A DNA stretch of 64,000 bases, from IMG/VR virus record IMGVR_UViG_3300021400_000072. The stretch is one strand, 5' to 3'. The notes under the pieces are model-generated. The model had not been told where the DNA came from and made no database searches. It was given only the letters and a program-made list of their open reading frames with translations. Of this stretch, positions 7,376-56,442 are shown piece by piece; position 1 is the first letter of the stretch; each line of letters begins with the position of its first letter. The stretch is from a virus. The position numbers were made by a program, and so were the translations under genes.

Positions 7376-7440
7376 CGTTGAATCTACCTCCTTCAATCTA
7401 ACTTGAGTATATCAAAAAATTTTAAAAATGTCAAAAAAAA

Positions 7441-7466
7441 TAGGATGGATTTAAATATCCATCCCA
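7441..7466 (-). terminator. Hairpin with T-run downstream of dUTPase (minus-strand sense)
   Basis: aggatggat ttaaat atccatcct; the minus strand then reads TTTTTTTT. Confidence 0.5.
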
Positions 7467-7470
7467 TCAA

Positions 7471-12279: not shown

Positions 12280-12466
12280 TATCTTCTTCTCCTTTTAATA
12301 AATAGAGTAATATATCTTTGGCATTATAATTAAAAATATGATAAGGATAAAAACTAAAAACATTATTAAAAATTTTACATTCATGTTTCCATTTACATTT
12401 ATCTTCTTCACATTTACCACCATTATAACATTCAATACACATAATTATAAGATTATAAGGACTCAT
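12272..12466 (-). CDS. Small Cys-rich protein (about 64 aa)
   Basis: GGAGG 6 nt before ATG. MSPYNLIIMCIECYNGGKCEEDKCKWKHECK... Overlaps the pol stop. Confidence 0.35.
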   Translation of the reverse strand: MSPYNLIIMCIECYNGGKCEEDKCKWKHECKIFNNVFSFYPYHIFNYNAKDILLYLLKGEEDNE

Positions 12467-15400: not shown

Positions 15401-16388
15401 ATGATTCCATTAGACTTTGAAGAATTGGATATTTATTTAATGCAGTAGTAGTTTCTGGAGGATAATTTTTAACGGGAACACTTGGAATTGTTTGACTATG
15501 AAGTAAATCATATATTTGAATCTTTTCAAACATTTCCATACTATTTTTACAAAATTCATCTATCAACAAGCCAACAGACGGTTCAAGATTTTTTCTTAAA
15601 TCATCTTCGTCCTGAAGATACGCATATTCATAAAAAGCATCAGTTTCTCTCTCACCACCTTTAGAATTAAGATAAGCCTTATGAATATATCTATCTTCCT
15701 TTCTAAGATAATGAGCGTCGTCACCGATAACAACTTTCTTTCCATATAATTGTGCAATTTGCACTAATTTATTATTTGCAATAATTTGTTCTTTAGATGC
15801 TCCTGGCGCAATCTCAACGTAAAAATCATCACCAAAAACTTCATCAACAAATTTCATAAAATCAATAATTTGATTATATTTAATCGTTGCAGTTTCTATG
15901 TCTTCCATCTGGCGGGCTCGTTCCATTTCAACGATACAGCTTGAAAGTTCACCACCAAGACACGCAGACGTTGCTATAAGATGACCTGGATTCCGCCCAA
16001 CAATTTCTTTTAATTCGCTCTTGAGAGTTGGCACACGTTCCATACCTCTATCCCAATAAGAATTCATCCAAGCACGAGAAGACAATTGACGTAATTGTTT
16101 ATGACCTTCCGCATCTTTAGCAATTAATATAAAGTGATAATACTTTATACCATTTTGTCTTACATCTGTAAGATATATTTCATTACCTATTGCGATTTTA
16201 AAATCTGGATTTTCCTTTTGAAGTTTACAAACACGAATAGATTGGGCAAGGGTTTCATGGTCTGTGATAGCCAATCCCGCAAGCCCAATCTCTTTTCCTC
16301 GTTTTATGAGGTCTGGTAATTTATTTATACAATCGAGAAGTCTAAAGTTTGACATCTCTGTATGACAGTGTGGAACAAAACGTTGCAT
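12453..16388 (-). CDS. dnaE: DNA polymerase III alpha-type (DnaE-like) replicative polymerase with N-terminal PHP domain; 1311 aa; no TAG
   Basis: HCHTEMSNFRLLD...GLAGLAITDHETLAQ PHP motif, 1311 aa intact ORF, ends in TAA. Confidence 0.85.
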   Translation of the reverse strand: MQRFVPHCHTEMSNFRLLDCINKLPDLIKRGKEIGLAGLAITDHETLAQSIRVCKLQKENPDFKIAIGNEIYLTDVRQNGIKYYHFILIAKDAEGHKQLRQLSSRAWMNSYWDRGMERVPTLKSELKEIVGRNPGHLIATSACLGGELSSCIVEMERARQMEDIETATIKYNQIIDFMKFVDEVFGDDFYVEIAPGASKEQIIANNKLVQIAQLYGKKVVIGDDAHYLRKEDRYIHKAYLNSKGGERETDAFYEYAYLQDEDDLRKNLEPSVGLLIDEFCKNSMEMFEKIQIYDLLHSQTIPSVPVKNYPPETTTALNKYPILQSLMESSDIYDRYWVNECLNACREKNLLTPEYGKELEEEARVKRIIGEKLGTNMFKYPITLKYYIDMIWECGSLVGAGRGSSCAALNHYLLGITQLDPIEWNLPFFRYMNDERTELGDIDIDICPSKKGTIVRKIKEERGSRFNPDIDDLSRKNLGCTLVATYGTEQTKSAVLTACRGYRSEEFPDGIDNDEAQYIASLIPSERGFLWPLEDVINGNKDKDREPVHAFVKEVNEYPGLLDIIFGIVGLVNKRSSHASGVILFDEDPYEFGCFMKTPKGEIITQYDLHDCEAAGLVKYDFLVTEVQDKLAQAIRFLQEDGIIEDTGINLRPVYDKYFHPNVLPINDKDVWKAIQNGTVINVFQFDSEVGSQAAKKIKPTTILELTDANGLMRLMTAEKGAETPMEKYIRFKNNLDLWYKEMDSAGLTKEEQQTLIPYFKSSYGVPPSQEQLMLMLMDKNICHFTLAEANAARKIVGKKQMSKIPELRQKILTQATSEKLGKYVWENGVGPQMGYSFSIIHALAYSFIGFQTAYIATHWSPIYWDAACLVVNSGSLEEEDDIEYDEDDTPIKKKENATDYGKVAKALGEIINAGIEVSLVDINKSDYGFKPDVENNQILFGMKALSNVGASVVDQIKQNRPYVSIKDFMNRCKLNKTAMISLIKAGAFDELSKEDAESLNIDPRTWTMVYYLSITSNPKTRLNLQNMSTLINYNLLPKSLDFEKTIYYFNKYLKARKWQDYYVMPDQNGMNFYSDHFDMENIEIINNCFVIKQKVWDKIYSKVMDKVRNWLQSNQQEVLKQLNLKLFEEEWNKYAEGNISFWEMKSLCFYYHDHELKNIDNNFYGIVDFNNLSSTPVVDYFFKRNGKQIPIYKLQRIAGTVIGKNDTRHIVTLLTPTGTVNVKFTRDYYAMFNRQISEVNEEGVKKVKEKGWFTRGNKLLVTGYRRDDTFVAKKYKSTGGHQLYLITNVNGRRIELASARYGMEENNESL

Positions 16389-16925: not shown

Positions 16926-18098
16926 TTACCTCACCAAAACTAATTTATCACTGGCTCTTGTAACTGCCGTATAAAGCCATCTTGCATGTTCTTCTCTATC
17001 AAAAGGAAAAGATTCTTCTAACACACAAACGTTATCCCATTCACTGCCCTGTGATTTATGACATGTAATGGCATATCCATAAGTAAATTCCATCGGAACA
17101 AGATGAGCAGTTTTACGATTAGAAGTAAGTTTATAAATTTTACGATAATCTAAACATCTTTCTCCCGTAAGAATTTGTTTTTCATCCATTTGAAGTGGAC
17201 CAAAATTTGCATTACTATCAGAAGTAAAGTCTGCTTTTAAAACTTTAATAATATCACCACCTGCCCAACCAGGTGTTCTATTATAAGTTTCATATATATT
17301 ACTAATATAACCGATAGTTCCATTTACAAGAGGGTCATAATTATCTGCTTGATAATCCCAATAATTTCTAAGACAAATAACTTTATCACCATCTTCTGGC
17401 TTGTTACCGCGTCCCATTAAATCTCTCATTTTATTATTAATGGTAACACGTGTTGCATTTGTTCCTACTAGTATCTGGTCTGCCCATTTAAGTACGCCAG
17501 TATTTAAATCCTTTTTAGGCATAACAATTACATCTGAGCCAACAGAATAATCGAAAGATTCTTTATTGCGGACTTGCATAGAAAGTCTGATAATTTCAGA
17601 ATCTAATGCCTGTCGCATAATTTCATCAAGAAATACATCTGGAGTATTTAATAAACCATTATCTTGATTTTTATCTACTGGCGGAAGCTGGAACGGATCA
17701 CCTAAAGCTATAATAAATACGTTATGAGAAAAAAGAAGTTCCATTAACTGTTTAGGAGCCATCGAAACTTCATCTACAATAACTACTTTATAATCTACAG
17801 TAGCTTTAGGAATACGGAAAAAAGTCCCATCAGGTTTAGGAATACTTTCATAAAGAAGTTTATGTAAAGTGTAAACATTTACATTACCCTTTTTAAGAAG
17901 AACTTGCGCAGCCTTTCCTGTATAACAAGCATATGCTACATCACACTCTTCTACTCCAGGTAAATTTTGAACAATAAACTTTACTAATGTAGATTTACCG
18001 GCGCCCGCGTATCCAGATATTACACAATATTTTTCACCATTAATATATTTTTCAATACAAGTTTTTAATCCTTGTTCCTGTTTTTTTGTAAGAATCAT
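16926..18098 (-). CDS. SF1 Dda/RecD-like DNA helicase, 390 aa; no TAG
   Basis: Walker A GYAGAGKST, Walker B VIVDEVSM, motifs AITCHKSQGSEWD and YTAVTRA. Confidence 0.8.
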   Translation of the reverse strand: MILTKKQEQGLKTCIEKYINGEKYCVISGYAGAGKSTLVKFIVQNLPGVEECDVAYACYTGKAAQVLLKKGNVNVYTLHKLLYESIPKPDGTFFRIPKATVDYKVVIVDEVSMAPKQLMELLFSHNVFIIALGDPFQLPPVDKNQDNGLLNTPDVFLDEIMRQALDSEIIRLSMQVRNKESFDYSVGSDVIVMPKKDLNTGVLKWADQILVGTNATRVTINNKMRDLMGRGNKPEDGDKVICLRNYWDYQADNYDPLVNGTIGYISNIYETYNRTPGWAGGDIIKVLKADFTSDSNANFGPLQMDEKQILTGERCLDYRKIYKLTSNRKTAHLVPMEFTYGYAITCHKSQGSEWDNVCVLEESFPFDREEHARWLYTAVTRASDKLVLVR

Positions 18099-18478: not shown

Positions 18479-18496
18479 GCGCCCAGCAGATTAAAA

Positions 18497-20278
18497 TACA
18501 AAATTGCCTCGGTCTATAACCTAATAGTCCTATATAAAAATTTGAGGAGTTACATTTCCCATCCATTCGTTTTGATGTGCTCTCCCTATTATATTTAATT
18601 CATAATAGCCAGAAGTATTCTGTAACATATAACACTCTTCATCAGTTGCTTTAAATTTAATTAATGATATACCTTGTGGAGTAGTTATTTTTAAAGTATT
18701 ATTTTTCTTAACATAAACTGTTACCATATCTGAAGTTACTTTTAAATGCTAAATACATATAAATGGTTCATCTATATCTTTTCCCCATAAATCCTACATA
18801 TTAGCAATAGTAAGTATATCATTTGGATTTATATTATTTCCTTGATAAATATAATCCACATAATACATTGCCTAATTAGGCATATCTTTTAATAGTTCAT
18901 CTGTCTTTTCTATAAAGGCGGGAATGTTTTCCTACAATATACCTAAACCAAATGCACCAGGATGACCTACCTAATACATCGTTAAACCTGTGTCCGCGCA
19001 TATACTTTTAAAATCATTTATTCCGACTTTATCACATCCTCTTGCGGAACCTTGATAAGATATAATTCCATTATCTATTACTTTTGTTAATAAACACGTA
19101 GGTCTTTGATATTTAGCCATAATTTTATTAGCAATTAAACCTGCAATATTCTTATCAACTTGGCCAGGTTCAAGTAAAAATAATAATACTTTATGGTCTA
19201 AAAGATGTTGCTCCTATATCATTCTTTCTATTGTTTGTAATCCACTATCTTGTGCTTTTGTTTGTCTGTTCTTTACGTTAGTAACAATTCTCATTACTTG
19301 CTAAACAAGTTGTTCTTGCTAACCTAAGAAATGTCCTCTTTTTGTAGAAGGTAACATTTTAAATGCTTTGTATTTTAACATAGATTCAAACGTTAGTGTT
19401 TTTTCTTCTACTGTACCACTTCTACAGATAGCATTAATATACGGAGCCACATAAAAAGCCACACTCATATGATTAATTTTATTATTCATAGAAAAGGCAT
19501 TTTTTTCAGATAAGTTTACAAAGAATGGGTTTTTAAGATTATGAAAACCTTTATTAATAAGATGTTTCGTTTCAATAGATAGCATAGACATCATATCCGC
19601 GCAATTGCCTAATGCCATTAAATCTGTATAATTATCAGCATTATTAATACCAAGTAATGAATCTAAATAACGACAAAATTGCCAAACTATACCTGCTCCG
19701 CTAAAATCTTTATTAGGATAATCTGATAATTGATTATTTATAACAATAGCATCAGGATTTTCAATATCACAAATATGATGGTCTAAAATAATTGTATCAA
19801 TACCATTTTGTTTTAAACGAGTACATTCATCTACATCATTTGAGCCTGCATCTGGTATAATAACAAGAGAATAGTATGAATACCAATTATCAGACAATGA
19901 TTCATTTTCTTTTAATATCTAATCTATATGGTCATTTAATCCGTGCTGTTTACCCTCATGAACGCGATAATCTATTTTATTTTTTACCCAAACTGGGAAC
20001 AAATCATATAAATAGTTAATCAAAATTGCAGAACTTGTAAAACCATCAGCATCACTATCTACTATTATTAAACATCTATGATTATCTTGAATAGTTTTCA
20101 TTAGAATTTTTGCGGCCGCTCGCAGTTTTAATACATCTAATTCTTTAAAAGAATTTATATCGTTATCGGTTGTATTAAGATAATGATATACTTCATTATA
20201 AGGAACTCCCCTATTAGTTAGAATTTGTTCTATTGTTGAATAACTCTGATTAATAGGATTTATTAATTGATATTTCAT
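18497..20278 (-). CDS. RecJ-like DHH-family ssDNA exonuclease (about 593 aa); about 12 in-frame TAG
   Basis: DSDADG and IILDHH motifs. ORF-track 19919.., 19319.. and 18530.. are one frame, joined only by TAG. Confidence 0.8.
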
Positions 20279-20335: not shown

Positions 20336-20365
20336 TTGAGTTGTCAAATTTACATGACAACTCAA
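20336..20365 (-). terminator. Hairpin with T-run after the primase gene
   Basis: tgagttgtca aatttaca tgacaactca, then TTTTTTTT on the minus strand. Confidence 0.5.
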
Positions 20366-21513
20366 ATAATAATCCTATTCTTAAATAATTCTAGAAAAAT
20401 ATCAGGTCCATTATCAATAGGGGACATTTTAAAATCTAATAGATGTTCTTTATCCCATAAAAAACTTATTTGTACTTTTGTACAATATTTTTTATTAATA
20501 TCAATTAATTTTTTAGTCCATTTTTTCCAATTATCATCTCCAGTTTCTTCATATTGTCTATCGAAACCAATAATAATTTCTTGAACTCCAAGAGATAAAA
20601 GCATATCAATTTGATAATTAATTAAATTACTTCCACATGCGGCAACTGTAATATCATTCTCGATACCGAAATAACTTTCATATAGAAGCGGACTTTTTTC
20701 ACCTTCGAAAATAATAGCCTTTTTTATATTATGTATATTATTTTTACTAACGTTAATATTATATAAGTTAAAGCCTAAAGGATGATTATACATTTTTCCG
20801 TGAATAATAGCAGGAATATATTTACCTTTCGTTTCATTTTCTTTAAGGAGTGTCCGCTCTCTAATACCAATTAGTTCTCCATTAATATTATAATGGGGAA
20901 TAAGTATACCTTGAGTTATAGGATTGTAACGTATATTATGATATTGAATTACCTCTTGTGATATACCTTCTTTAATCCATGGGAGTATAATAGGCTGTGG
21001 AAAATTTTTTAAAAAATCGCATTGAAAAGTGTTGAGAGAGACAATTTGATTGCTTGATTTTTTATGTTTTTTTGCTTCTAATTTTGAGAAAATTTGCCAA
21101 TCTGGTAATTCTGAATGTTTCTCTGAAAATATTTCATTTGGCGGCTCAATATTAAAAAAGACTGCAACATAATGAACAGCATCAGGTAAATCCCATGGTC
21201 GAGAAACTTTTTTGCCTTCTTTAGACCAATAAACTATTTGTTCCTGTGCTGTTGCTTTTATTTTTAATGTTAATTCAAAAATATCAAATGTATCATTGCA
21301 TTGAGTAAAACATTTAAATAATTTTGTATTATCATAATAATATAATTTAAAAGAACCATGACCAGGCGGATTATGACAAATTGTACGTGATACAATTACA
21401 TCATGATGAATCTGTGGTTCTCCGCCCATATCAGTAAGGAATTCATATACCTGGTCAATCGTCAAATTGTTCTTTATATCTTCAAGATATTTTTTACGTT
21501 CTAATTCATTCAT
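20362..21513 (-). CDS. DNA primase (CHC2 zinc finger + TOPRIM), 383 aa; no TAG
   Basis: CHNPPGHGSFKLYYYDNTKLFKCFTQC zinc finger; IIFEGEKS TOPRIM. Confidence 0.8.
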   Translation of the reverse strand: MNELERKKYLEDIKNNLTIDQVYEFLTDMGGEPQIHHDVIVSRTICHNPPGHGSFKLYYYDNTKLFKCFTQCNDTFDIFELTLKIKATAQEQIVYWSKEGKKVSRPWDLPDAVHYVAVFFNIEPPNEIFSEKHSELPDWQIFSKLEAKKHKKSSNQIVSLNTFQCDFLKNFPQPIILPWIKEGISQEVIQYHNIRYNPITQGILIPHYNINGELIGIRERTLLKENETKGKYIPAIIHGKMYNHPLGFNLYNINVSKNNIHNIKKAIIFEGEKSPLLYESYFGIENDITVAACGSNLINYQIDMLLSLGVQEIIIGFDRQYEETGDDNWKKWTKKLIDINKKYCTKVQISFLWDKEHLLDFKMSPIDNGPDIFLELFKNRIII

Positions 21514-23051
21514 TAAAACGCACCTTTCTCTGGAATAACATTAACTTTAAAATCTTCCATTTCAATTAATTCATAAACATATGATGTAGCAAATATAGGA
21601 TTGATTCTACATGTACCTAAATCCGCTTTACACCATAAAAGAATATGATTGTACCTACCTCGTCTATTTTTATATATAGACATTTTAAGATTAGGAATTT
21701 CCATACCCTTTTCAGAACAAAGTTTATTTATAACTTCTTTATCTGCTTCCGTTAAATTAAGTAAGATACTGCCTGCATCAATTTTATCAGCAATGGATTT
21801 TGCACCACGAAGAAGGTTTTGGTCAAAAATTGTAACGCTAGTATAATCACCATTTAATTGTGTACTTGACATAATGAAAATATTATTTTCAACAGCAAGG
21901 TCTTTAAGTCTAACGCTAATCATAAAAAGAACATTATCTTCTCTTAAACCTTTTACGGACGCGCGAGATGCTACTTCATGAAGAATTTTCATACTACTAT
22001 GAATATAATCTAAAAAGAAATAACTAACGTTATAGCTTCTAATAGAAGTTTTAACTACATTTTCAATATCCTTTAAAGAGAAATCATGGAGTTCTTTTAA
22101 GTATAAAGGACTCTTTTCAATTAAATCAATAGCATGAAGAACTCTTTCTTCTTCGTCTCCAACATATTTATATGTCAGAATGTGCTCTTCATTTACGCCA
22201 GATAGGAAAGCCCACATCATAGTTTGAACTTCATCAAATTCTTGTTCCGTCATAACATACATAGTTGGTTGTGCGGGACCTGTACTTACCCATTGCTTCT
22301 TTTCTAAATCATAAATTTCATCACAACCAATATAACAAGCATCTGCGGCCATCGCTCTGGATTTACCTACATTAGTCGCTGCTGAGCGTAAATAAAATTT
22401 GCCAAGGCGAGCACCACGGAACACGGTATTGATAAGTCTTCCATATAGAGGATAACCAATATCAGGATTATTTTTTAATTGCTCAAATAACTGGCGGCCG
22501 CCTTTACCGGCTTGAATTATACCGTCTGCCGCTCCGCCAGAATGTTTTTGTTTAATATTATCAATTCTTTCATCAATTAAATCAATAATTTCTTGCTCAG
22601 TGTGATTATCTAACCAATCTTCTTGTGCCTGTTTTTTCTTTTGGTCAAAAATATTGTTTAAATCATATAACCAAGATAAATCCATACCTACTTCTTCATT
22701 ATATAATCTAAGTAGTGTCATTTTTTTTAAACGATGGTAATAATAATTAAATGCGGCAACTTGTGAATTTTCACTTATTTTTTCAAGATATTCTGACCCA
22801 CGGTTAGCTTTGTATACAGCTAATTTTTTTGGTCTTGATTCAAGATAATCTTCTATATTGGCGGAAGTTACTTGTTTTACTCCAAGCTGATGTAAATTAT
22901 AAATACTACCAAAAACAACTTGATGAAATTCTTCGATAAAATCTTCAAGAGTAAAAGTGTATTGCTCGTTATCTAATATATCGGGATTTTGATATACACT
23001 ACCTATAACTTGAATAATTGCTGATGTATCTATATATCTAACTTTACTCAT
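21513..23051 (-). CDS. DnaB-like replicative helicase, 512 aa; no TAG
   Basis: C-terminal RecA-like ATPase (SAATNVGKSRAMAADACYIG). Position next to primase, primase-helicase layout. Confidence 0.6.
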   Translation of the reverse strand: MSKVRYIDTSAIIQVIGSVYQNPDILDNEQYTFTLEDFIEEFHQVVFGSIYNLHQLGVKQVTSANIEDYLESRPKKLAVYKANRGSEYLEKISENSQVAAFNYYYHRLKKMTLLRLYNEEVGMDLSWLYDLNNIFDQKKKQAQEDWLDNHTEQEIIDLIDERIDNIKQKHSGGAADGIIQAGKGGRQLFEQLKNNPDIGYPLYGRLINTVFRGARLGKFYLRSAATNVGKSRAMAADACYIGCDEIYDLEKKQWVSTGPAQPTMYVMTEQEFDEVQTMMWAFLSGVNEEHILTYKYVGDEEERVLHAIDLIEKSPLYLKELHDFSLKDIENVVKTSIRSYNVSYFFLDYIHSSMKILHEVASRASVKGLREDNVLFMISVRLKDLAVENNIFIMSSTQLNGDYTSVTIFDQNLLRGAKSIADKIDAGSILLNLTEADKEVINKLCSEKGMEIPNLKMSIYKNRRGRYNHILLWCKADLGTCRINPIFATSYVYELIEMEDFKVNVIPEKGAF

Positions 23052-26025: not shown

Positions 26026-26688
26026 TTACTGATTAAACAAAATTAATTCTTCGGCATAAGGTAAAGTTTTCACCCAATTACAAAAGTCTTGACTCCATTC
26101 TGTAAGTTTATGATTTTTACGTTGTCCATACATATTTCGTAAAGTTTCATAATTAGCTGTCCAAGTTCTTTTTTGCAACCATCCCTCTGGAAGCCAACGG
26201 ATAAGTTCTTTCCAATATCTTTTATTTTTTGTTTCAAGATAACGTTTTCTAAGAGTTTCACATATATCAATGATATAATCTACACAATCTTCTATAGTAT
26301 CATCAATAGTATATGGTTCACCCTCAAAAAGAATTAAGTCTGAACTAAAGTCTCCCATTTCAAAACAATCTTTAGTAATAGGAGTACTAGCTAATTTATG
26401 CATGGTTGATGTTGAATTAGCAACCGTTGCTACTTTATAAGTATCAGCTTCCTTCCACCAATATAACGGTGCAGTTATATCAACAGAGACAAAGATTTGA
26501 CGAAGAAATTTTCTATCACTTGCGCCAGCTTTAATCATACGTTGCGCTAAATCTAAATCTTTTGGACCTATTTGCTCTGGAGAACCAGGAATATATACAC
26601 TGTCACTTTTTGCCCAACTTTCAAGAGGATTACGTAATCCTCTTAATGCACCTTCGAAATTCATTACTTTAGTATTCTAAAATTTCAT
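26026..26688 (-). CDS. Hypothetical protein (about 220 aa); 1 in-frame TAG near the N-terminus
   Basis: MKF-Q-NTKVMNFEGALRGLRNP... Start overlaps the GIY-YIG stop (TAATG). Confidence 0.4.
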
Positions 26689-27023
26689 TATTTATTACCT
26701 TTCGTTACATTTAAACCAACTTTGTTTGATTGATACATCTAAATCCAAAACCGTTCTTTTTCATTTAACTTATCACGAGTACATTTCTAAAGAATTTCAA
26801 AAGTAAAATTCCATACTCCATATTTTTGCATATTATTATAAAGTTTATTCGTTGCGGAAGCATCTATACCAAGACCACATTTTACATGCTGTTTCCATCT
26901 ATCGGCAATATTTACACTTTGTCCAATGTAAATATCTCCAGTTTGTTTATTAGTAATTTTATAGATTCCACAAACTGATCCAGAACCTAATACACGATTG
27001 CATAAATCAGTAGTAGGTTTCAT
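26689..27023 (-). CDS. GIY-YIG homing endonuclease catalytic domain (about 111 aa from the ATG at 27023); 2 in-frame TAG
   Basis: SVCGIYKITNKQTGDIYIGQSVNIADRWKQH...EKERFWI. Confidence 0.85.
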
Positions 27024-27029
27024 TATAAA

Positions 27030-27644
27030 AGTAGACCAAATGACTTTAGAAACAATAGAAGGGTCATTAAGTTCCTTTTTCCATTCTTGAAGATGTGTAA
27101 TATCGTTAATCTATTTTTCAGATATTTTTATACGATAAAAAGATATTTTATCCTATTCTTCTTGCTACCTAAGACGTGCGGCGGTCGCAGCCTAATATAC
27201 AGATTTAAGCTAGGCCAAACTCGATTGAATCTAATTCCGCTATCTCTATATTTTACCTATCTATTGATATAATTGAGATTTCATTTCTATCTACTCTTGA
27301 CGAATAGACTAATGAAAGTCCTAACGATGTTTTATTCGTTGTTCTTCATAGTTTTGCTCTATTTGCTATAGTTCGTCTTGACGAGTTTTTTTTCTAGTGT
27401 CTAATATAGTTTGTTCCTATTGTTGTAATTGTTTCAACTATAAAAGTTTATTTTGTTTATTAATAATCTACTGATTTAAATTAGATATTTTAATCTATTT
27501 GCTTCTTATCTATATTTTTATATTCTATTTTTCTTTTTCTAATGTTATTTCTTGCTATTTTAATTGCCGCACCTTATTAAATAAATAATAAGCAAATATA
27601 AGCACTATAAAAAAGAAAATTATTAAAACTGCTCGTCCTATCAT
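27030..27644 (-). CDS. Membrane-anchored Gln/Lys-rich coiled-coil protein with 22 in-frame TAG; in frame with the downstream GIY-YIG domain, with no TAA/TGA between them
   Basis: Hand translation: MIGRAVLIIFFFIVLIFAYYLF (TM helix), then QLKQ QEITLEKEKQ NIKIQ IRSKQ...; frame is open from 27644 to 26689. Confidence 0.5.
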
Positions 27645-27653
27645 TATATTAAA

Positions 27654-27683
27654 GAACGGGTTAAGTATAAAAACTTAACCCGT
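27654..27683 (-). terminator. Perfect 12-bp hairpin, 10 nt upstream of the ATG at 27644
   Basis: aacgggttaagt ttttat acttaacccgtt. Confidence 0.5.
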
Positions 27684-27692
27684 TATAAGAAA

Positions 27693-28280: not shown

Positions 28281-30317
28281 TCAATTAATCAAGTCAATAA
28301 GTTGCTTTTCTGTAATAATCGGGATGTTCAATTCTTTCGCCGTTTTGTTTTTACTAGAAGTAGAATTAGCATCATTGTTTACGAGATAGTTGGTTTTTTT
28401 AGATACCGATCCCGTAACTTTTCCGCCATTACTTTCGATAAAATCTTTTAATTCATTTCTATTTTTAAATTCAATAGTTTTACCCGTAATTACAAAGATT
28501 TTATCTTTAAATTTTTTATCTTTATCTTTATCTTCTTCTGGAACTGAAGATATGATTTCAATTATATGGTTATCAAAAATATTATCAGCTTCGCTATAAT
28601 CAAAAGTAGTAAGAGTCTTTATCATAACATCACCGATGCCTTTAATATTATAAAGTCTATCATCTTCATCTGGGAAATCAACAGCATGTCTAAATCCATT
28701 ATATGTATGGTATACTTTAATTAAATCTTCTGAAGCTACCTTGCCTATCTGCGGAATACCAATTGCCGCAATAAATTTAGATGCTGTACAACAACTACCA
28801 CTATCTATTGCTGATAATATTTTATCAACGGAAGCTATACCGAAGCCCTCTTTTTCAATCCATTCATTACGATGCTCTTGTAATTTAAAAATATCTTCTA
28901 AAGAATTAATCCATCCCCAATCAATAAGTTTTTCAAGAGTTTTTTTAGATAATCCTTTTATATCAAGCCCTTTTTTACCACAGAAATGGTCAAGGCGATT
29001 AATTAATTTACCGCTACAAAGAGGGTTTTCACAATACGCTCTTTCTACACCATTTTCTTCTTTAAAAGATATTTCTCCATGACAAATAGGGCAGAACTCT
29101 GGAGAATCATTTGCGGAAACTCCTCCTTTAGAAATAACTTCTCCGTAATTATATTTAGGCCCTGCGGAATAAATTTGAGGAATTATCATATTGCTTTTAA
29201 ATACTTCAAGAGGTTCACCTACATAGGCGCAATCTCCCAAAGTTTCTCGCATAACACTAACATTATGAAGAGAAGCACGAGAAACTTCCGCGCCATCTAT
29301 TTCAATAGGGTCAAATACTGCTACTGGAGTTAGAACTCCTGTTCTTCCCATTGTCCAGTCAATATAACGGAGACGAGTTGGATATGTTTCATCGTAAAAT
29401 TTATAAGCGATACCGCCTTTAAAGTGATGATCGGTACGACCTGCCGCTTCATATTCAGCAATATTATCATATTTAAAAACAATTCCATCAATAGGATAAT
29501 ATCTATCTGTAGATTTGCCTTTTATGATATATATAGCATTATTAAGAGAAAGATTACTAACATTTTCTTCTCCAGAAAAAGTTGCATCCCAAGGGACTAC
29601 AGTAAAACCTAAAGGATTTAATAATCTTAATTTCGTAGATAGCTTTTCAATAGGAAACCCATCAGATATATTATATTTAGTATTATTAAAAAAACAATCC
29701 CAAGCTACAAAAGTAAGATGTCTATTTTTACATTCTTTAGAATCAAGAAGTCTTATACTCCCGCTTGCAAAATTACGAGGATTTTTAAAGAACTTTTGAA
29801 AAGGTTCAAAATCTTTTTTTGTGCAAATGATTTCTCCATCAACAATAAGTTCTTCTCCATCATTTTCACAATGAATATGTTTAGGAATAGAAGGAATTAC
29901 CATAGCGTTATGAGTAATATCTTCTCCAATCACACCATTTCCTCTTGTTTCTGCGGAAACTAATTCTCCATTAACATATCGTAAAGAACAAGTAAGACCA
30001 TCCATTTTAGCCATAGCTATCCAATTTTTATTACCAAGAAATTCTTTAATATCTTCTATATCTTTTGTTTTTTGAAGAGAAAGCATAGGATGATTATGAG
30101 TTACCTTTTTTAAATTGTTAATAATATTATAATGAATTGTTTGAGTAGGAGAATCGGGATAAATAAGACCAGTTGCTTCTTCAAGATGTTCTAACTTATA
30201 GTACATTATATCCCATTCCATATCAGTAAGATATGGTTTTCCTTTTTCATAGGCTTCTGTTGCTTGATTTAATTTATCTATAAAAGTTCTTATATCTTTT
30301 GAATTATTTATCATCAT
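28281..30317 (-). CDS. ligA: NAD-dependent DNA ligase LigA, 678 aa; no TAG
   Basis: AKMDGLTCSLRY adenylation lysine motif, CPICHGE...CENPLCSGK zinc finger, C-terminal BRCT-like region. Confidence 0.9.
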   Translation of the reverse strand: MMINNSKDIRTFIDKLNQATEAYEKGKPYLTDMEWDIMYYKLEHLEEATGLIYPDSPTQTIHYNIINNLKKVTHNHPMLSLQKTKDIEDIKEFLGNKNWIAMAKMDGLTCSLRYVNGELVSAETRGNGVIGEDITHNAMVIPSIPKHIHCENDGEELIVDGEIICTKKDFEPFQKFFKNPRNFASGSIRLLDSKECKNRHLTFVAWDCFFNNTKYNISDGFPIEKLSTKLRLLNPLGFTVVPWDATFSGEENVSNLSLNNAIYIIKGKSTDRYYPIDGIVFKYDNIAEYEAAGRTDHHFKGGIAYKFYDETYPTRLRYIDWTMGRTGVLTPVAVFDPIEIDGAEVSRASLHNVSVMRETLGDCAYVGEPLEVFKSNMIIPQIYSAGPKYNYGEVISKGGVSANDSPEFCPICHGEISFKEENGVERAYCENPLCSGKLINRLDHFCGKKGLDIKGLSKKTLEKLIDWGWINSLEDIFKLQEHRNEWIEKEGFGIASVDKILSAIDSGSCCTASKFIAAIGIPQIGKVASEDLIKVYHTYNGFRHAVDFPDEDDRLYNIKGIGDVMIKTLTTFDYSEADNIFDNHIIEIISSVPEEDKDKDKKFKDKIFVITGKTIEFKNRNELKDFIESNGGKVTGSVSKKTNYLVNNDANSTSSKNKTAKELNIPIITEKQLIDLIN

Positions 30318-30514
30318 GCTTCATAATCCTCATAATCTCTACTAACAGATTCTCCACAAAAAGGACAAATAGCTGTAATATATGGTTCATTTCTCCAATT
30401 GTGGTATGTATAAGAAGAATCATCTGCTTCAAAAATACAGTTACATTTAGAGCAAATAAAACGTTTTGTTTTATTAAGTTTTTTTAAGCTACCATCTTTG
30501 ATAATTTTAATCAT
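30314..30514 (-). CDS. Zinc-ribbon protein, 66 aa
   Basis: CSKCNC...CPFCG. Confidence 0.4.
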   Translation of the reverse strand: MIKIIKDGSLKKLNKTKRFICSKCNCIFEADDSSYTYHNWRNEPYITAICPFCGESVSRDYEDYEA

Positions 30515-32856
30515 AATACAATTACGGATTGAACCGTACTCCTTTCTATAATTTTTGTACCATAACCAAATTTAGTTTGTTCAGATAGTTCTTGGACAGT
30601 AGTACAAATAGAATTAGGTTTGCCTACAACTAAAAGAGAATCTTCTTTAGTTAAAGGAACAATAGAAGTAACATAATCTTTTTCTTCTAAAGGAATAATA
30701 TTGTTTCCTCTACCATTACGTTTTTGAATAGTAAAATTATTTATATCCATTTTTTTGCTATTTCCGTTATGAGTAAAGATTCCAAGGTATTTAATATCTT
30801 TAGAAACATAGAAAGCGGAAACCACTTCATCGTTTTCTTTCAAAGCGATGCCTTTTACTCCACAGGTTAATTTACCAATTGGATTAATATCATCTGATGG
30901 AACTTTTATAACATTACCAAATTTAGTTCCGATAATAATATTTTCCTCGTTCATAAAAGTAACGGATAATAATTCATCATCATCTTTGATTTTGATAGCT
31001 TGAATACCCGTTTTCTTTTTTGCTTTAGTATATTCTTCTATTTCTGTCTTTTTAATTAAACCATTTTTAGTAAAGAAAACTACATAATCCGCAGGTTTTT
31101 CTCCAGAAATAGCCGTAGCAGTTTGGAACATTTCATTATCAGCAAAAGGAAGAAGTAAATGTAAATTAGTTCCTCTTGAAGCATTTGTCCCTTCGGGAAT
31201 TTTATCTACTGCTAATTTATACATTTTACCTTTTGATGTAAATATCATTAAATCATCAAGAGTATTAGTAGATATAGTTGTTTTGATTGCGGCATCCATA
31301 GTTTTTACACCTTTACCGTTTCTTTTTTGTATTCTAAAACTCTTTTTAGGAATACGTTTAATATCTCCAGTATGGGTAATAATAACTACGACATCTTCAG
31401 GAGTTATATCAATTTTTTCTTTTTCTTCTTTTACATCGTCAATTTGAGTTAATTCTGTACGACGTTTATCTCCATATTTTTTAACTAATTCCGCCAAACG
31501 AACTTTTAATAATTCTATTTGTTCTTCTCTACTATTGATAAGGTTTTCCCATTTTTGAATATTATGAACTAACTCGTCTCGCTCTTTTTCTAATTCTACC
31601 CCTTCTAACTTTGCTAAACTTGAAAGTCGCATAGCAAGAATGGCTTTTGCTTGGTTTTCGGTAAAACTCCACTTTTCAATAAGTAAAACTTTTGCCACGG
31701 CTCCAGATTCACTTTGTTTGATAAGAGCAATGATTTCGTCAATATGGACAATAGCTCTAAGTAAACCATCAACAATCTCCTTTCTTAATTTAGCTTTTTC
31801 TAAATCAAATTGAGTTTCTTTAACGATACATTCGAGATTATGGTCTACATAGATTTTTATGGCATCCCGCAAGTTTAATTCAGTAGGAGTTTTATCTACT
31901 AAAGCTACCTGATTATAACTAAATGAAGTCTGAAAATTAGTTTTTGCATAAATCTGTTTTGCAATTCCATCAGGTGAAAATCCTTTTTGACAAGTTATAA
32001 CAATTCTAATTTCTTTAGAACTTTCATCGTGTATATCATGGATACCTTTTATTTCTTCCTTATCACAAATTTCGCCAAGTTCTGTAATTAACCCTTCTAT
32101 TGTAGTTCCATATGGGATTTCATAAAAGATAATCTTATTTTTATTTTTACCTTCTACTTTATAACGTGCTCTAATTTTTACTGAACCATGTCCTGTTTCC
32201 ATAATTTTAGGGATGTCATTTTTATTAATGATTAATCCGCCGGTAGGAAAATCAGGACCGGGCAAAGAAACAATATCTCCATTTAAATAATCATTGATGG
32301 CTTTTGCGACATCGTTAAGATTATGAGGGGCCCAATTACAGGCCATAGCGACACCGATTCCTGTATTTGGGTTACAAAGAAGATTAGGAAAGGCAGAAGG
32401 GAGAGTAATAGGCTCTTCAAGAGTTTCATCATAATTTGGAATAAAGTTAACATTCTTCTTTTTAATTCCATTTAACATACCTTCTTCTGCAATTTTACTA
32501 AGGCGTGCTTCAGTATAACGTGCGGCCGCAGGTCCATCCCCTGCAATGTTACCGTTATTACCATGCCAATCTATAAGAGGATAACGCATAACCCACGGTT
32601 GAGACAATCTAACCATTGCTCCGTAGATTGAACTGTCACCGTGAGGGTGGTATTTGCCCATAACGTCACCGACAATTCTTGCCGCTTTAACGTGAGGCTT
32701 TGAGGAAGTCCGCCCTTCTTCAAATGCTGACCAGAGAATACGTTTTGCTACAGGTTTTAAGCCAGATTTAGCATCAGGAATTGCTCTGTCGGTATTTACA
32801 GCTACCGCATATTCTATAAAGTTTGTACTTAATTCTTTTGTTAAATCATTCTGCAT
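30511..32856 (-). CDS. Type II topoisomerase A subunit (GyrA/ParC-like), 781 aa; no TAG
   Basis: YHPHGDSSIYGAMVRLSQPWVMRYPLIDWHGNNGNIAGDGPAAARYTEARL matches the GyrA signature including the catalytic Tyr region. Confidence 0.9.
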   Translation of the reverse strand: MQNDLTKELSTNFIEYAVAVNTDRAIPDAKSGLKPVAKRILWSAFEEGRTSSKPHVKAARIVGDVMGKYHPHGDSSIYGAMVRLSQPWVMRYPLIDWHGNNGNIAGDGPAAARYTEARLSKIAEEGMLNGIKKKNVNFIPNYDETLEEPITLPSAFPNLLCNPNTGIGVAMACNWAPHNLNDVAKAINDYLNGDIVSLPGPDFPTGGLIINKNDIPKIMETGHGSVKIRARYKVEGKNKNKIIFYEIPYGTTIEGLITELGEICDKEEIKGIHDIHDESSKEIRIVITCQKGFSPDGIAKQIYAKTNFQTSFSYNQVALVDKTPTELNLRDAIKIYVDHNLECIVKETQFDLEKAKLRKEIVDGLLRAIVHIDEIIALIKQSESGAVAKVLLIEKWSFTENQAKAILAMRLSSLAKLEGVELEKERDELVHNIQKWENLINSREEQIELLKVRLAELVKKYGDKRRTELTQIDDVKEEKEKIDITPEDVVVIITHTGDIKRIPKKSFRIQKRNGKGVKTMDAAIKTTISTNTLDDLMIFTSKGKMYKLAVDKIPEGTNASRGTNLHLLLPFADNEMFQTATAISGEKPADYVVFFTKNGLIKKTEIEEYTKAKKKTGIQAIKIKDDDELLSVTFMNEENIIIGTKFGNVIKVPSDDINPIGKLTCGVKGIALKENDEVVSAFYVSKDIKYLGIFTHNGNSKKMDINNFTIQKRNGRGNNIIPLEEKDYVTSIVPLTKEDSLLVVGKPNSICTTVQELSEQTKFGYGTKIIERSTVQSVIVL

Positions 32857-33098
32857 TTTTTATCGCCTTTTTTAATTCATTCTATGGTATTGGATGTATA
32901 TTACCTACCAAATTTATTTTATCTATTAAATCTTCAAAACTTTCTTCAAAATAATATAATTTTCTCATAATCTATTCTATAGCTTGAGGATTTAAATCTT
33001 CTACATAATCTCCCCAATTTCTATAAGTGCCTGTTTTATATTGACCTATATATAAAAAGTCTCCATACTGATTTATTTCAATTAGTCGATTATTCTAC
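32845..33098 (-). CDS. Small protein (about 84 aa); 3 in-frame TAG
   Basis: MQNNRLIEINQYGDFLYIGQYKTGTYRNWGDYVEDLNPQAIE-Q-IMRKLYYFEESFEDL... Stop overlaps the gyrA-like start. Confidence 0.35.
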
Positions 33099-33371
33099 AT
33101 CCTCTATTACCTCATATTCTACATCATCAATTCCGCCATAATCATCTACACGATAATCGTCTATAATTAAATCTAAATTAGGAAGAATTTCTTCTTCATA
33201 AATAAATTCTTTAGGATTTTTCTGAAGTCTTTCAAATTCTTCTGCCGTTAATTCTAAAACACCCTCTTTATGTCCATAACGAAGACGTCCTATTACATAT
33301 TCTAACGGAATATTAAACTTTACTTTTTTATTCTGCATTATGGGTAGTCTCCTTTCGTAATATTTTTCCAC
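33090..33371 (-). CDS. Hypothetical acidic protein, 93 aa
   Basis: Intact ORF. Confidence 0.35.
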   Translation of the reverse strand: MEKYYERRLPIMQNKKVKFNIPLEYVIGRLRYGHKEGVLELTAEEFERLQKNPKEFIYEEEILPNLDLIIDDYRVDDYGGIDDVEYEVIEDVE

Positions 33372-33627
33372 AAACAGGACAATATCTTATAGAAGGATAA
33401 GAATATGTACTATAAATAATTTTATCGTTTATATATCCATCATAAAACCATAACCAATATTTTTGAGATTTTATATCAAAAACTATTGTCGTTGTTCTAC
33501 CATTTTTTGGAATAAAATCTTTAGGAACTTTTTCTATATCTTCAATTTCTTCAATATTCTTACAAAAGCTACATGTAGATTGATTTAATTTTATCCAATC
33601 TTTTTCAGAAATTTTCTTACTCAGCAT
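33328..33627 (-). CDS. Zinc-ribbon protein, 99 aa
   Basis: CSFCK...CPVCG. Confidence 0.4.
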   Translation of the reverse strand: MLSKKISEKDWIKLNQSTCSFCKNIEEIEDIEKVPKDFIPKNGRTTTIVFDIKSQKYWLWFYDGYINDKIIYSTYSYPSIRYCPVCGKILRKETTHNAE

Positions 33628-56375: not shown

Positions 56376-56420
56376 TAGTTGTATTAGTATTAAAAAATGC
56401 TGATACAACTATCAGCATTT
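56375..56420 (+). promoter_or_regulatory. Two mutually exclusive hairpins between the two fibre genes (attenuator-like)
   Basis: gatagttgtat ...18 nt... atacaactatc, versus local gctgata caac tatcagc followed by ATTTTAT. Confidence 0.35.
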
Positions 56421-56442
56421 TATGGAAGAAAGGGATAATTAT

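Follow-up and report, generated by a model that had tools for sequence, protein, structure and literature searches.

A TAG-rich phage gene encoding a predicted membrane-tethered GIY-YIG nuclease, in a phage that probably reads TAG as glutamate

Results

The DNA analysed here, hereafter the window, is a 64,000-nucleotide stretch of the viral record IMGVR_UViG_3300021400_000072, in which TAG is a sense codon: open reading frames of 150 aa or more span 40.6 kb of it with the standard code and 62.4 kb when TAG is read through, and TAG codons lie inside conserved domains, as in TAG-recoded phages. The gene described in this study (26688..27644, minus strand) runs from an ATG at 27644 to a TAA at 26690-26688 and comprises 318 sense codons plus the stop, which overlaps the ATG of the downstream ThyX-like gene (26688-26686) as TAATG. 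The first-pass annotation had placed the start correctly and the end, at 26689, 1 nt off. Translation of the minus strand from ATG 27644 verified that this frame is open, with no TAA or TGA over its 318 codons, the alternative frames containing 15 and 22 TAA and 4 and 7 TGA. The frame is a single gene, from a membrane helix through to a GIY-YIG domain, and a fusion artefact is excluded. Full-length homologues are found at 50-100% identity, with 150 full-length representatives of family clusters, and the same architecture across the family upholds the earlier view that the membrane helix runs in frame into the nuclease. The gene is present, free of TAG, in standard-code and TGA-recoded phages too. 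No close relative of the window was found by nucleotide search among GenBank phages. A 198-aa gene call in contig L383, whose DNA is 100% identical to the window, was discarded as an artefact of the gene caller.

Upstream of the gene, a perfect 12-bp terminator-like hairpin (27655..27684, minus strand) ends 10 nt before the ATG, between this gene and a 103-aa gene whose stop lies at 27697-27695, and no Shine-Dalgarno (SD) sequence follows it. Both the hairpin and the missing SD had been noticed in the first-pass annotation and are borne out, 37/39 window ORFs having an SD. A hairpin with other stem sequences stands at the equivalent position ahead of the family gene in all the lineages inspected, in most of which a T-run and then an SD come after it; an SD is present for 44 of 65 family genes, and the subclade of the window is without one. 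A promoter-like match over the start codon was rejected, its -10 box running up to the ATG.

The product is built from four parts: an N-terminal membrane helix, a charged helical stalk of ~145 residues, a block of ~80 aa and a C-terminal GIY-YIG domain of the I-TevI type. The single membrane-spanning helix, AVLIIFFFIVLIFAYYLF (codons 5-22; 27579..27632, minus strand), is hydrophobic, helical in the AF2 model and predicted to be N-out by the positive-inside rule: in 65/65 family members the 15 aa that follow it carry more K/R (mean 3.5) than the residues preceding it (mean 0.06), so that the predicted topology is N-out/C-in and the nuclease would lie in the cytoplasm. The stalk (codons 23-169; 27138..27578, minus strand) forms part of one unbroken AF2 helix spanning residues 3-169, with pLDDT values of 78-94 at residues 11-140 and lower ones at 141-160. 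It is rich in E, K, R and Q if TAG encodes Glu, in which case the whole protein counts 40 Glu, 35 Lys, 23 Gln and 17 Arg residues. Its 3.45-residue hydrophobic periodicity is weak, the same value being reached by 40/500 shuffles, and the stalk, or spacer, could form a coiled coil or stand alone as one stable helix. The earlier description of an N-terminal transmembrane helix followed by a helical stalk therefore stands, whereas the label "Gln-rich" is probably wrong, since TAG aligns with Glu and not with Gln.

The conserved non-nuclease block (codons 143-224; 26973..27218, minus strand) consists, in the AF2 model, of the end of the stalk and two short helices (176-189 and 195-219) packing beside the nuclease. 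It contains the invariant columns L143, Y150, A152, A155, A156, R157, R159, F169 and Y170, followed by D181, L185, W188, K189, P195, W203, K209, C215, N216 and R217. Taken alone, the block gave no Pfam match, and none was found there over 56 family members, nor in PHROGs or PADLOC. The GC-rich run reported previously as odd does exist (codons 152-157, GCT GCG ACC GCC GCA CGT; 27174..27191, minus strand), and it encodes a conserved A-A-T-A-A-R motif in which, across the family, four positions (152, 155, 156 and 157) do not vary and the other two (153 and 154) hardly vary. The internal ATG at codon 208 (27021..27023, minus strand) does not serve as a start: its Met is replaced by L, I or Q in relatives, and the conserved block spans it without interruption, which speaks against a free-standing GIY-YIG gene starting at ATG 27023, as had been suggested.

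The nuclease domain (codons 225-312; 26709..26972, minus strand) retains an intact catalytic set. Residues 225-308 match PF01541 with 39.4 bits against a gathering cut-off of 22.6 (E 7.6e-10), a model also matched by 38/38 distant family members. Residues Y228, Y239, R249, H253, E297 and N312 correspond to Y6, Y17, R27, H31, E75 and N90 of I-TevI, R249 and E297 pairing with the positions mutated in 1LN0 and 1MK0, and the six are invariant or nearly so across the family. Residues 225-312 have the GIY-YIG fold, and the I-TevI catalytic domain is their top match by both sequence and structure; the second-best structural match is T4 EndoII, at 12% identity. By sequence comparison, the protein can be placed in the GIY-YIG nuclease superfamily.

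This architecture, with lengths of 295-340 aa, is shared by more than 150 clusters at 50% identity. The best 120 database matches all belong to the same family (120/120) and are nearly all full length, bar a few shorter or split forms. At E <= 1e-30, at least 836 cluster representatives (50% identity) were retrieved, the top 150 of which are nearly all full length, and none of the ten family clusters looked up carries a name. Divergence is graded, from 28 to 100% identity, and in all relatives stop codons are absent between the N-terminal part and the nuclease. The family gene recurs in 86 loci, and at every locus inspected for gene content its setting is constant: a small gene of 102-103 aa downstream of an NAD-ligase gene, then the family gene, then the ThyX-like gene. 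This is an SPbeta-like replication module, in which the family gene has nucleotide-metabolism genes around it, and it is the same in TAG-recoded, TGA-recoded and standard-code phages. Eleven family genes have no TAG at all, and some carry TGA at a family Trp. Some relatives do carry a genuine mobile GIY-YIG gene, inserted within the family gene. In one such insertion (L005), Rfam did not find a group I intron in either the whole locus or the 1.45-kb stretch, where a long ORF inside may mask one.

The gene has 22 in-frame TAG codons, many as had been noted but fewer than the 24 first counted, in the span 26739..27557 (minus strand; first TAG 27557-27555, last 26741-26739). Twenty of them precede codon 208, and the last two belong to the nuclease. 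They occupy codons 30, 40, 45, 50, 59, 69, 76, 93, 108, 112 and 118 and, in the second half of the series, 128, 133, 135, 138, 145, 151, 160, 164, 178, 286 and 302. This amounts to 6.9 TAG per 100 codons, compared with 0.76 in the rest of the window and 1.7-2.9 in the TAG-using tail genes. TAG-containing tail proteins of the window are encoded at 277-4932 and 44390-52625. The proposed excess over the tail genes is thus real, its size, given earlier as 4-5 fold, being 2.4-4 fold when the whole ORF is counted and 3.4-5.7 fold for codons 1-207. When TAG is grouped with the Gln codons, it accounts for about half of them, as claimed earlier (0.49); this share is ordinary for TAG-using genes, and as the Gln identity is itself probably wrong, a Glu-based analysis supersedes this one. 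On that basis the share is 22/40 (0.55), compared with 0.24 in the other TAG-using genes (P = 2e-5) and 0.11 in all others. The replication-core genes of the window are without any TAG, the family gene being the most TAG-rich. In 49/49 related recoded loci the family gene has a higher TAG share than its neighbours (0.33 vs 0.04). That expression depends on suppression, as first suggested, is true by construction and is in keeping with this recurrent enrichment; the excess fits suppressor-dependent expression without proving it. The TAG load may have been selected as a means of timing, or may only be a side effect of the gene being expressed weakly or late. As standard-code members of the family have no TAG, gating is no part of its basic mechanism.

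Comparison of homologous positions strongly indicates that TAG stands for glutamate, decoded by a tRNA-Glu-like tRNA(CUA) that the phage encodes. In the family alignment, the columns of codons 160 and 286 hold Glu in every non-TAG member, codon 286 pairing with a Glu of the I-TevI "ILEE", and the family columns score +24 log units for E and -48 for Q. In two loci (L049 and L080), it is the catalytic Glu position that carries TAG. In neighbouring genes, E is opposite 54% of the TAG codons, as it is opposite GAA/GAG (50%), whereas Q is opposite CAA in 32%, and site-level residue profiles opposite TAG match those of GAA/GAG, unlike those of CAA. The maximum-likelihood residue for TAG is E at 9/11 reference loci, across which Q lies 1.2-15.9 log units under the best-fitting residue. 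Among close relatives, the exchange partners of TAG over 109 sites are GAA (51), GAG (26) and CAA (14), with CAG never found. For the genome of the window itself, the counterparts of TAG are 16 Glu vs 2 Gln, and TAG sites in its AAA_24, YorF and ThyX-like genes face E in 30/30, 31/31, 34/39 and 14/17 relatives. The Glu content of the gene classes evens out (7.3% vs 7.8%) only with TAG counted as Glu. Codon 178 is CAA instead of TAG in the nearest relatives of the window. In PDB alignments of the window dUTPase and NrdD, with X at TAG, the TAG codons fall at variable positions, the dUTPase site "YRG@IKV" being opposite E in 3/5 and T in 2/5. Against the standard-code phage PMBT24, a distant comparison at 23-31% identity, TAG pairs with E at 5/20 positions and with Q at 2/20. 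The pattern of "code 15", i.e., TAG opposite Gln, exchange with CAA/CAG and a tRNA-Gln-like suppressor, is not what this comparison returned. With TAG as Glu, nothing is unusual about the stalk, an E/K-rich helix, and the conserved Glu residues of the nuclease are preserved.

A search with ARAGORN did not find a suppressor tRNA(CUA) in the window, in ~85 locus flanks or in the 10 kb past the right end, the sole tRNA in any locus flank being a tRNA-Ser(GCU) (L071). By synteny, the tRNA array of this genome would lie ~11-15 kb farther right, outside the sequence covered, and the suppressors were therefore read in relatives, among which there are at least three types. As whole-tRNA identity hardly separates the isotypes (0.71-0.74 vs 0.65-0.72), three elements were used instead, namely the D arm, the acceptor stem and the variable loop. 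The D arm of the suppressors on family contigs corresponds to tRNA-Glu in 63/73 bacterial tRNA matches, and these suppressors have the acceptor stem of the phage's tRNA-Glu(UUC) and a 4-nt variable loop, unlike the phage's tRNA-Gln(UUG). Suppressors were located at L388 5220-5296, L385 4633-4706 and L378 4917-4993.

Discussion

In this study, we have described a single TAG-laden gene, kept at a fixed place in a phage replication module, whose codons bear on the genetic code of a whole group of phages. The reading that we consider probable is that a clade of gut and rumen phages of Bacillota, with genomes of ~130-180 kb, decodes UAG as Glu through a tRNA-Glu-derived CUA suppressor charged by the host GluRS, and that it keeps the nuclease gene as a UAG island, which would make synthesis of the enzyme rise steeply with the level of the suppressor. 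Being without tRNA-Gln features, the suppressor would presumably escape Gln formation. Within this reading, the island, with up to 55% of Glu codons as UAG, may amount to a switch, built into the gene itself, that controls a dangerous enzyme. It could instead be that TAG encodes Gln ("code 15") and that the Glu signal is a by-product of frequent E-to-Q replacement via GAG>TAG, which we regard as improbable. TAG = Gln is the sole amber reassignment that we found reported for phages in the literature, and the case of phage phAss-1, published as TAG = Gln with a Gln-like suppressor (PMC10607447), supports it, as does the alternation with CAA (at codon 178, at 14/109 sites and in 6/25 reverse cases). 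Such a code is difficult to reconcile with the fact that CAG, the one-step synonymous neighbour, never alternates with TAG whereas GAG does so 26 times, or with a residue profile opposite TAG that equals that of GAA/GAG and not that of CAA. TAG is also present in columns where the family otherwise always has Glu, one of them, in two lineages, being that of the catalytic Glu; it is the Glu and not the Gln content that evens out between gene classes; and the suppressors are tRNA-Glu-like.

The glutamate reading has precedents outside the bacterial world: in the nuclear codes of peritrich ciliates and of Blastocrithidia (NCBI tables 30 and 31), UAR is read as Glu. These are eukaryotic systems in which UAA is reassigned as well, whereas here UAG alone is concerned, in a bacterial virus whose host presumably uses the standard code. 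One published account deals with reassignment of stop codons to glutamate in nuclear codes (PMC12153298). The "code 15" gut phages (Borges et al. 10.1101/2021.08.26.457843; PMC10607447) resemble the present group in using TAG as a sense codon, concentrated in late genes, with a phage-encoded tRNA(CUA), and phAss-1 even carries a homologue of the family gene beside its suppressors. Those studies assign TAG to Gln, whereas the comparative and tRNA evidence presented here favours Glu.

With regard to function, the best explanation of the whole, which we hold with somewhat more confidence than doubt, is that the protein is a membrane-tethered DNase, most likely excluding foreign DNA. The closest parallel is SNIPE, in which a transmembrane helix that stops self-cleavage is followed by an elongated region, then by a middle domain and, at the C-terminus, by a GIY-YIG domain (bioRxiv 10.1101/2025.11.03.685801). 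SNIPE/PD-lambda-1 from E. coli and the family have their parts in the same order, with a C-terminal GIY-YIG domain facing the cytoplasm (by prediction in the family), and both combine a conserved nuclease with N-terminal regions that vary greatly. The N-terminal anchor with a cytoplasmic remainder is predicted for the family protein from residues 5-22 and the charge pattern in 65/65 members, and its C-terminal GIY-YIG domain has an intact active site. The systems differ in that SNIPE is encoded by bacterial defence loci and the family by phages, and in that the middle block of the family is shorter and different, its nuclease is of the I-TevI type and its protein has 318 aa, compared with the 491 positions of the PADLOC PD-Lambda-1 profile. 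The DUF4041 domain was not detected by Pfam in 18 members at E <= 10, in 38 at E <= 0.01 or in the block alone at E <= 1. The PADLOC PD-Lambda-1 model does not match the window protein and matches 1/38 members (E 1e-4), in the N-terminal region only, where 160 aa of that member faintly resemble it.

The helix would hold the protein in the cytoplasmic membrane, and the rigid stalk would place the nuclease ~20 nm into the cell, where it might cleave DNA near the membrane. By analogy with SNIPE/PD-lambda-1, the likeliest target would be foreign DNA entering the infected cell, the outcome being superinfection exclusion or competition between phages, and the tether would hold the nuclease off the phage's own replicating DNA. 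The 22 TAG codons, the first of which comes right after the membrane helix, the missing SD and the terminator may together keep synthesis low and make it hinge strictly on plentiful suppressor tRNA; when suppression fails, only a 29-residue membrane peptide would be made. The early guess of an exclusion protein is reasonable. As a functional assignment in its own right, exclusion of incoming DNA is tentative, somewhat short of an even chance, followed in likelihood by functions other than those discussed here, by degradation of host DNA and by membrane-associated transactions of phage DNA; the nucleotide-metabolism neighbourhood also suits degradation of host DNA, and the structural match to T4 EndoII points the same way.

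Indeed, the nuclease might nick or cut the host chromosome and feed the adjacent nucleotide-metabolism enzymes, the TAG load delaying its action until the suppressor is present, and T4 endonuclease II (DenA), also a GIY-YIG enzyme, acts in this manner. We find this unlikely, as an anchor and a rigid 145-residue stalk are ill-suited to reaching the whole nucleoid: DenA is soluble, with neither transmembrane helix nor stalk, the tether of SNIPE is precisely what stops chromosome cutting, and we saw no sign of the phage DNA being shielded from a general nuclease. A role in membrane-associated transactions of the phage's own DNA, in which the GIY-YIG domain would nick or resolve replicating, recombining or packaging molecules, is less probable still. 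It has a precedent in p16.7 of phi29, a protein with transmembrane, coiled-coil and DNA-binding parts that organises DNA at the membrane, and it would suit a vertically inherited core gene, present in hundreds of lineages and fixed in a replication module that extends from ligase/topoisomerase to YorF/AAA_24/DnaB. Nevertheless, the replication-core genes of the window avoid TAG whereas the family gene is the richest in it, a terminator separates the family gene, and a DNA-binding module was not recognised in its product.

Two further proposals touch the nature of the gene itself. That the frame holds a gene for a small membrane/coiled-coil protein and, landed in frame behind it, a second one for a free-standing GIY-YIG homing endonuclease from ATG 27023, could draw on the ATG at codon 208 and on a nuclease closest to homing-endonuclease catalytic domains, but it is highly improbable: the most conserved block crosses codon 208, where M208 is L, I or Q in relatives, hundreds of clusters share the fusion, at 28-100% identity and with an unchanging locus, with no stop between the parts, and the mobile GIY-YIG gene of some relatives is an insertion inside the family gene. 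Homing endonucleases of the I-TevI type are mobile and sporadically distributed, in introns or between genes, and carry the nuclease as an N-terminal domain followed by DNA-binding modules, whereas here it is C-terminal, the neighbours are the same at every locus inspected, and Pfam scans of 56 members did not find NUMOD, IENR1, HTH or another DNA-binding module. A C-terminal GIY-YIG domain behind an unrelated N-terminal part is also found in UzuA of Uzume and in phrog_26160 (about 278 aa). The window protein matches phrog_26160 and does not reach UzuA at E <= 1; the UzuA model is matched by 28/38 members, at profile positions 181-278 of 278, i.e., the nuclease only. A lysis accessory, such as an i-spanin, an antiholin or a holin-like protein, is suggested by the transmembrane helix with a long helix and by weak matches to the Rz-like spanin phrog_89 (E 0.026, the sole spanin match) and to DUF2681 (E 0.003, under the cut-off), and it is the least credible of all. 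The predicted topology, N-out/C-in in 65/65, is opposite to the N-in/C-out anchor of an i-spanin, and outside the cell a nuclease would serve no purpose; the gene is part of the replication module instead of a lysis cassette, the holin and lysin being 9 kb away, and an o-spanin partner is absent. The strong SD sites, the tRNAs of Bacillota type and the GH25/CHAP lysin of the phage point to a Gram-positive-type Bacillota host without an outer membrane. The likeness to i-spanins or antiholins drawn by the first-pass annotation is thus not supported.

All together, our results define a large unnamed family of phage proteins, with at least 836 clusters at 50% identity, whose SNIPE-like design suggests that phages use membrane-tethered nucleases, probably against competitors. 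The gene is the clearest single-gene case in the window of recoding focused on one hazardous gene, and on it the idea of recoding as a translational switch becomes directly testable. If UAG is indeed read as Glu, this would be the first stop-to-Glu reassignment in the virus or bacterial world, and the list of natural code variants would gain an entry obtained via a simple change of the tRNA-Glu anticodon. In that case, the "code 15" annotation would give the wrong residue at thousands of positions in these phages, and the whole group would at present be mistranslated, by translation table 15, under the NCBI taxon "Caudoviricetes code 15 clade" and in the database proteins.

An intact gene for a predicted membrane-anchored nuclease

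Read with TAG as sense, the minus-strand ORF runs from the ATG at 27644 to the TAA at 26690-26688 and comprises 318 sense codons, with no in-frame TAA or TGA; the two alternative frames hold 15 and 22 TAA over the same stretch. Its in-frame TAG codons number 22 (20 up to codon 207, the other two in the nuclease part) rather than the 24 of the first-pass annotation, whose observation is essentially right once the counts are corrected. TAG is a sense codon throughout the window, where ORFs of 150 aa or more span 62.4 kb with TAG read through versus 40.6 kb in the standard code. An 87-kb ENA contig is 100% identical to the window.

The best 120 of 2,480 matches in a search of 5.8 billion proteins all belong to one family, being mostly 291-334 aa long, 49-100% identical and nearly all aligned over the whole query. 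Among 1.84 billion cluster representatives searched with a profile, 836 reached E <= 1e-30, and the best 150 of these are nearly all full length (295-340 aa); the ten family clusters looked up all lack a name. The N-terminal halves are variable, and residue 143 opens a nearly invariant block (L143, Y150, AATAAR at 152-157, F169, Y170, W188, K189, P195, W203, K209, C215, N216, R217), which continues unbroken into the GIY-YIG domain; block 143-224 matches no Pfam family. The full-length relatives and this unbroken conservation bear out a single in-frame protein from membrane helix through GIY-YIG. A free-standing homing endonuclease, starting at ATG 27023 and inserted in frame, had been offered as the alternative and is rejected, as conservation runs through the would-be junction and relatives carry L, I or Q in place of M208, the proposed start. 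No homing-endonuclease DNA-binding modules were found in the family protein, and the GC-rich run that had seemed odd is the DNA of the AATAAR motif.

The AlphaFold2 model (44-sequence alignment, mean pLDDT 83) shows one unbroken helix over residues 3-169, made up of a membrane segment (5-22) and a stalk of ~145 residues, followed by two short helices (176-189 and 195-219) and a GIY-YIG fold spanning 226-307. The membrane helix of the original description is borne out in the model, as is a long helical region after it, but its coiled coil does not gain from the sequence: heptad periodicity is weak, equalled by 40/500 shuffles, and a single charged helix is as likely. Basic residues average 3.5 beyond the membrane helix and 0.06 before it, a pattern holding in 65/65 family members, so the predicted topology is N-out/C-in with a cytoplasmic nuclease, and the suggested likeness to spanins or antiholins is rejected.

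Eleven family genes are TAG-free, and several more are broken solely by TGA, exactly at a family Trp, and thus come from TGA-recoded phages; the architecture is therefore independent of amber recoding. The TGA-cut ORFs (L067, L070, L074, 4268-4678 / 3980-4390; L083, 3956-4690) end at DIAKR/W and place the gene in TGA-to-Trp recoded phages too; TGA read-through also lengthens ORFs in L018, L032, L075 and L048, loci whose family gene is TAG-free. Public gene calls differ: L383 (13034-13630, 100% identical to window 26688-27284) carries a 198-aa fragment from an internal Met, other contigs a 318- or 326-aa call, and database proteins of the window's clade show Q at every TAG. In locus L005 (6745-7990), and also in L006, a ~1.25-kb insertion splits the gene within codon V244 (YIGQSV/NIADRW), and the remainder resumes in another frame; split forms include proteins P0055-58, P0067, P0068 and P0070 and cluster representatives P0267 and P0303. 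The L005 insertion encodes its own 313-aa GIY-YIG gene (6896-7837; Pfam GIY-YIG only), and its borders, U before the 5' junction and G at the end, are as in group I introns; Rfam found no intron model in it.

TAG is probably read as glutamate

In the family alignment, scored over 99 TAG-containing columns with residues from 13 non-TAG-using members, Glu stands at +24, Lys at -38 and Gln at -48 log units; TAG resembles GAA/GAG and differs from CAA. Columns with Glu in all non-TAG sequences, among them those of window codons 160 and 286, hold TAG in 13-19 recoded sequences; codon 286 pairs with Glu in the I-TevI 'ILEE', and in two lineages (L049, L080) TAG occupies the position of the catalytic Glu. 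Neighbouring genes of 46 recoded loci, compared with aligned positions of 11 non-TAG-using relatives, have Glu opposite TAG in 54% of cases, against 50% each for GAA and GAG and 32% Gln opposite CAA. The site-level profile opposite TAG (E 37, D 10, K 8, Q 6%) agrees with that of GAG. With each reference locus taken singly, Glu is the maximum-likelihood residue in 9/11, and across the 11 Gln lies 1.2-15.9 log units under the best-fitting residue.

Other genes of close relatives (85-100% identity) exchange TAG for GAA 51, GAG 26, CAA 14 and CAG 0 times (n = 109), the pattern expected of a synonymous Glu codon. The window's own genome gives 16 Glu versus 2 Gln, and at TAG sites of its AAA_24, YorF and ThyX-like genes Glu occurs in 31/31, 30/30, 34/39 and 14/17 relatives. 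GAA and GAG make up 5.4% of codons in TAG-using genes, 7.3% with TAG added, versus 7.7% and 7.8% in TAG-poor genes; TAG counted as Gln instead produces a Gln excess (4.7% versus 3.2%). The family alignment, neighbouring genes and codon exchange all favour Glu over Gln; the label 'Gln-rich' is probably wrong, and we consider it likely that TAG is Glu in the window.

No tRNA genes were found in the window. A pattern scan of IMG/VR recovered tRNA(CUA) genes on two contigs with a family gene, L109 (contig of L051) and L378 (contig of L013, a member of the window's subclade), and on L379, from the sample in which relative L007 (93% identical) occurs. The L379 sequence matches DNA 4.7-10 kb past the window's right end at 78-82% identity, which places the tRNA array ~11-15 kb right of the window. 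The arrays of two closer genomes were reached via a neighbouring DUF2828 protein: L388, on a contig with the 95%-identical family protein P0022, and L385, whose neighbour protein is 97% identical. Each has one tRNA(CUA), then tRNA-Ser(GCU), with tRNA-Gln(UUG) separate.

At least three acceptor-stem types occur among the clade's suppressors: GGCUCGG (L388 5220-5296, L378 4917-4993, L377 2901-2975), CGCCCNN (L109 4138-4213, L385 4633-4706, L212 1343-1418) and GGCCCCA (L089 1810-1885, L217 3448-3523, L236 790-865). A Glu-type D arm is common to all three; position 1/72 of the GGCUCGG type is G1.U72 or U1-A72, depending on 3' end placement. In L377 a tmRNA gene (3426-3735, tag peptide GNYSYAMAA) adjoins the suppressor within the tRNA array. 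The suppressor D arm, GTCRAGYGGTTTAAGAC, has 73 matches within ARAGORN-called tRNAs of bacterial genomes, 63 in tRNA-Glu, 3 in tRNA-Gln and 4 in tRNA-Cys. In acceptor stem and flanks (GGCUC.../...GGGCU-A) the L388/L378 suppressor matches the tRNA-Glu(UUC) that the phage itself encodes; it also shares the A13.A22 D stem and 4-nt variable loop of tRNA-Glu, and is unlike the phage's tRNA-Gln. In many Bacillota, Gln-tRNA is made by GluRS charging followed by GatCAB, whose recognition elements are the D loop of tRNA-Gln and U1-A72; a CUA tRNA of the Glu type would keep its Glu charge.

The sole GenBank phage with a family gene homologue, phAss-1 (NCBI taxon 'Caudoviricetes code 15 clade'), is annotated with TAG as Gln. 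Its TAGs in the homologue, of which GenBank annotates only a 145-aa fragment, likewise hit a family-invariant Glu column. Two Sup-CTA tRNAs lie ~400 nt after the homologue (L380 6878-6949 and 6956-7043; OQ749652), one Gln-like (5' UGGGG...) and a second, unusual one that combines a variable arm of ~17 nt with a Glu-like D arm.

A TAG-loaded gene among TAG-free neighbours

The gene order is identical in loci with listed gene content: topoisomerase subunits, NAD-ligase, a 102-103-aa protein, the family gene, a ThyX-like gene, YorF, AAA_24, YorH and DnaB. The family stop overlaps the next ATG (TAATG), that of the ThyX-like gene (weak Pfam Thy1 match, E 0.015). The perfect 12-bp hairpin first described lies at 27655-27684, 10 nt before the family ATG, and is terminator-like; as also described, the gene lacks a Shine-Dalgarno site, one of only two such among 39 window ORFs in a phage whose sites are strong (37/39). 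A terminator-type hairpin lies upstream in every lineage inspected, with differing stem sequences (dG -13 to -22 kcal/mol in L001, L003, L012-L017, L019, L032, L051, L081 and the window), usually followed by a T-run and Shine-Dalgarno site, both lost in the window's subclade.

Whether the gene is 'hyper-amber' depends on the residue counted. Measured against Gln codons, its TAG share (0.49) is no higher than in the tail genes, and Gln richness would explain the density; measured against Glu codons, the share is 22/40 (0.55), the highest in the window, versus 0.24 in other TAG-using genes (P = 2e-5) and 0.11 in the rest. The nearby replication genes (PolIII alpha, RecD-like helicase, primase, DnaB, ligase, topoisomerase subunits) have no TAG. 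In recoded loci the family gene's share averages 0.33 versus 0.04 in co-directional neighbours and is higher in 49/49; the positions vary between lineages. With its own hairpin and this excess, the family gene is a separately controlled, TAG-loaded island within a TAG-free early module.

Window TAG use falls sharply into two classes, with TAG-free blocks at 12453-16388, 16926-18098, 20362-23051 and 28281-35512 (the replication core) and TAG-using blocks at 277-4932, 18491-20278, 35949-37418 and 44390-53835. The users are tail genes, lysin (7), RecJ-like (11), NrdD (5), RuvC (4) and dUTPase (3); three TAGs seemingly within DnaB precede the true start of that gene. Two TAG-free tail-fibre-like ORFs (840 and 2045 codons) fill 53856-62577, where ORF G+C is 0.34-0.38 versus ~0.29 in adjacent TAG-using tail genes; the block looks acquired from a non-recoded source. 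Another TAG-free ORF, on the minus strand at 41124-43625, encodes a protein of 833 aa that contains a major-vault-protein shoulder domain (PF11978); its Gln codons are 26 CAG and one CAA, opposite to the preference elsewhere in the window.

Discussion

The proposal of a suppression-gated device stays plausible. With 22 TAGs, yield would scale roughly with the 22nd power of suppression efficiency, and without suppression only a 29-residue membrane peptide would be made; gating is plausible from the codon pattern, given a TAG share above that of the neighbours in all 49 loci. The TAG-free standard-code relatives indicate, however, that gating is inessential to the protein's job, and instead of selected gating the load may reflect relaxed codon selection on a gene expressed weakly or late.

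The family protein is conserved, non-mobile and predicted to be membrane-anchored, with an intact GIY-YIG active site, and we infer a DNase that a rigid spacer tethers to the cytoplasmic side of the membrane. Among systems of this design the best characterized is SNIPE/PD-lambda-1, whose TM helix prevents the nuclease from reaching the chromosome and which cuts phage DNA during injection (bioRxiv 10.1101/2025.11.03.685801). By this analogy we favour exclusion of incoming foreign DNA, and the exclusion role raised earlier is plausible, although membership of the SNIPE family itself is unsupported: DUF4041 was not detected in the family protein, the PADLOC PD-Lambda-1 model matches just one member, weakly and in the N-terminal part, and matches to UzuA, an Uzume protein with a C-terminal GIY-YIG, are limited to the nuclease part. 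Live alternatives to exclusion are breakdown of host DNA, in the manner of T4 EndoII, and participation in phage DNA metabolism at the membrane.

The literature searched reports no phage amber reassignment other than to Gln. The protein extends the theme of membrane-tethered GIY-YIG nucleases with a new form carried by phages. More unexpected still, TAG appears to stand for Glu in the window's phage group.
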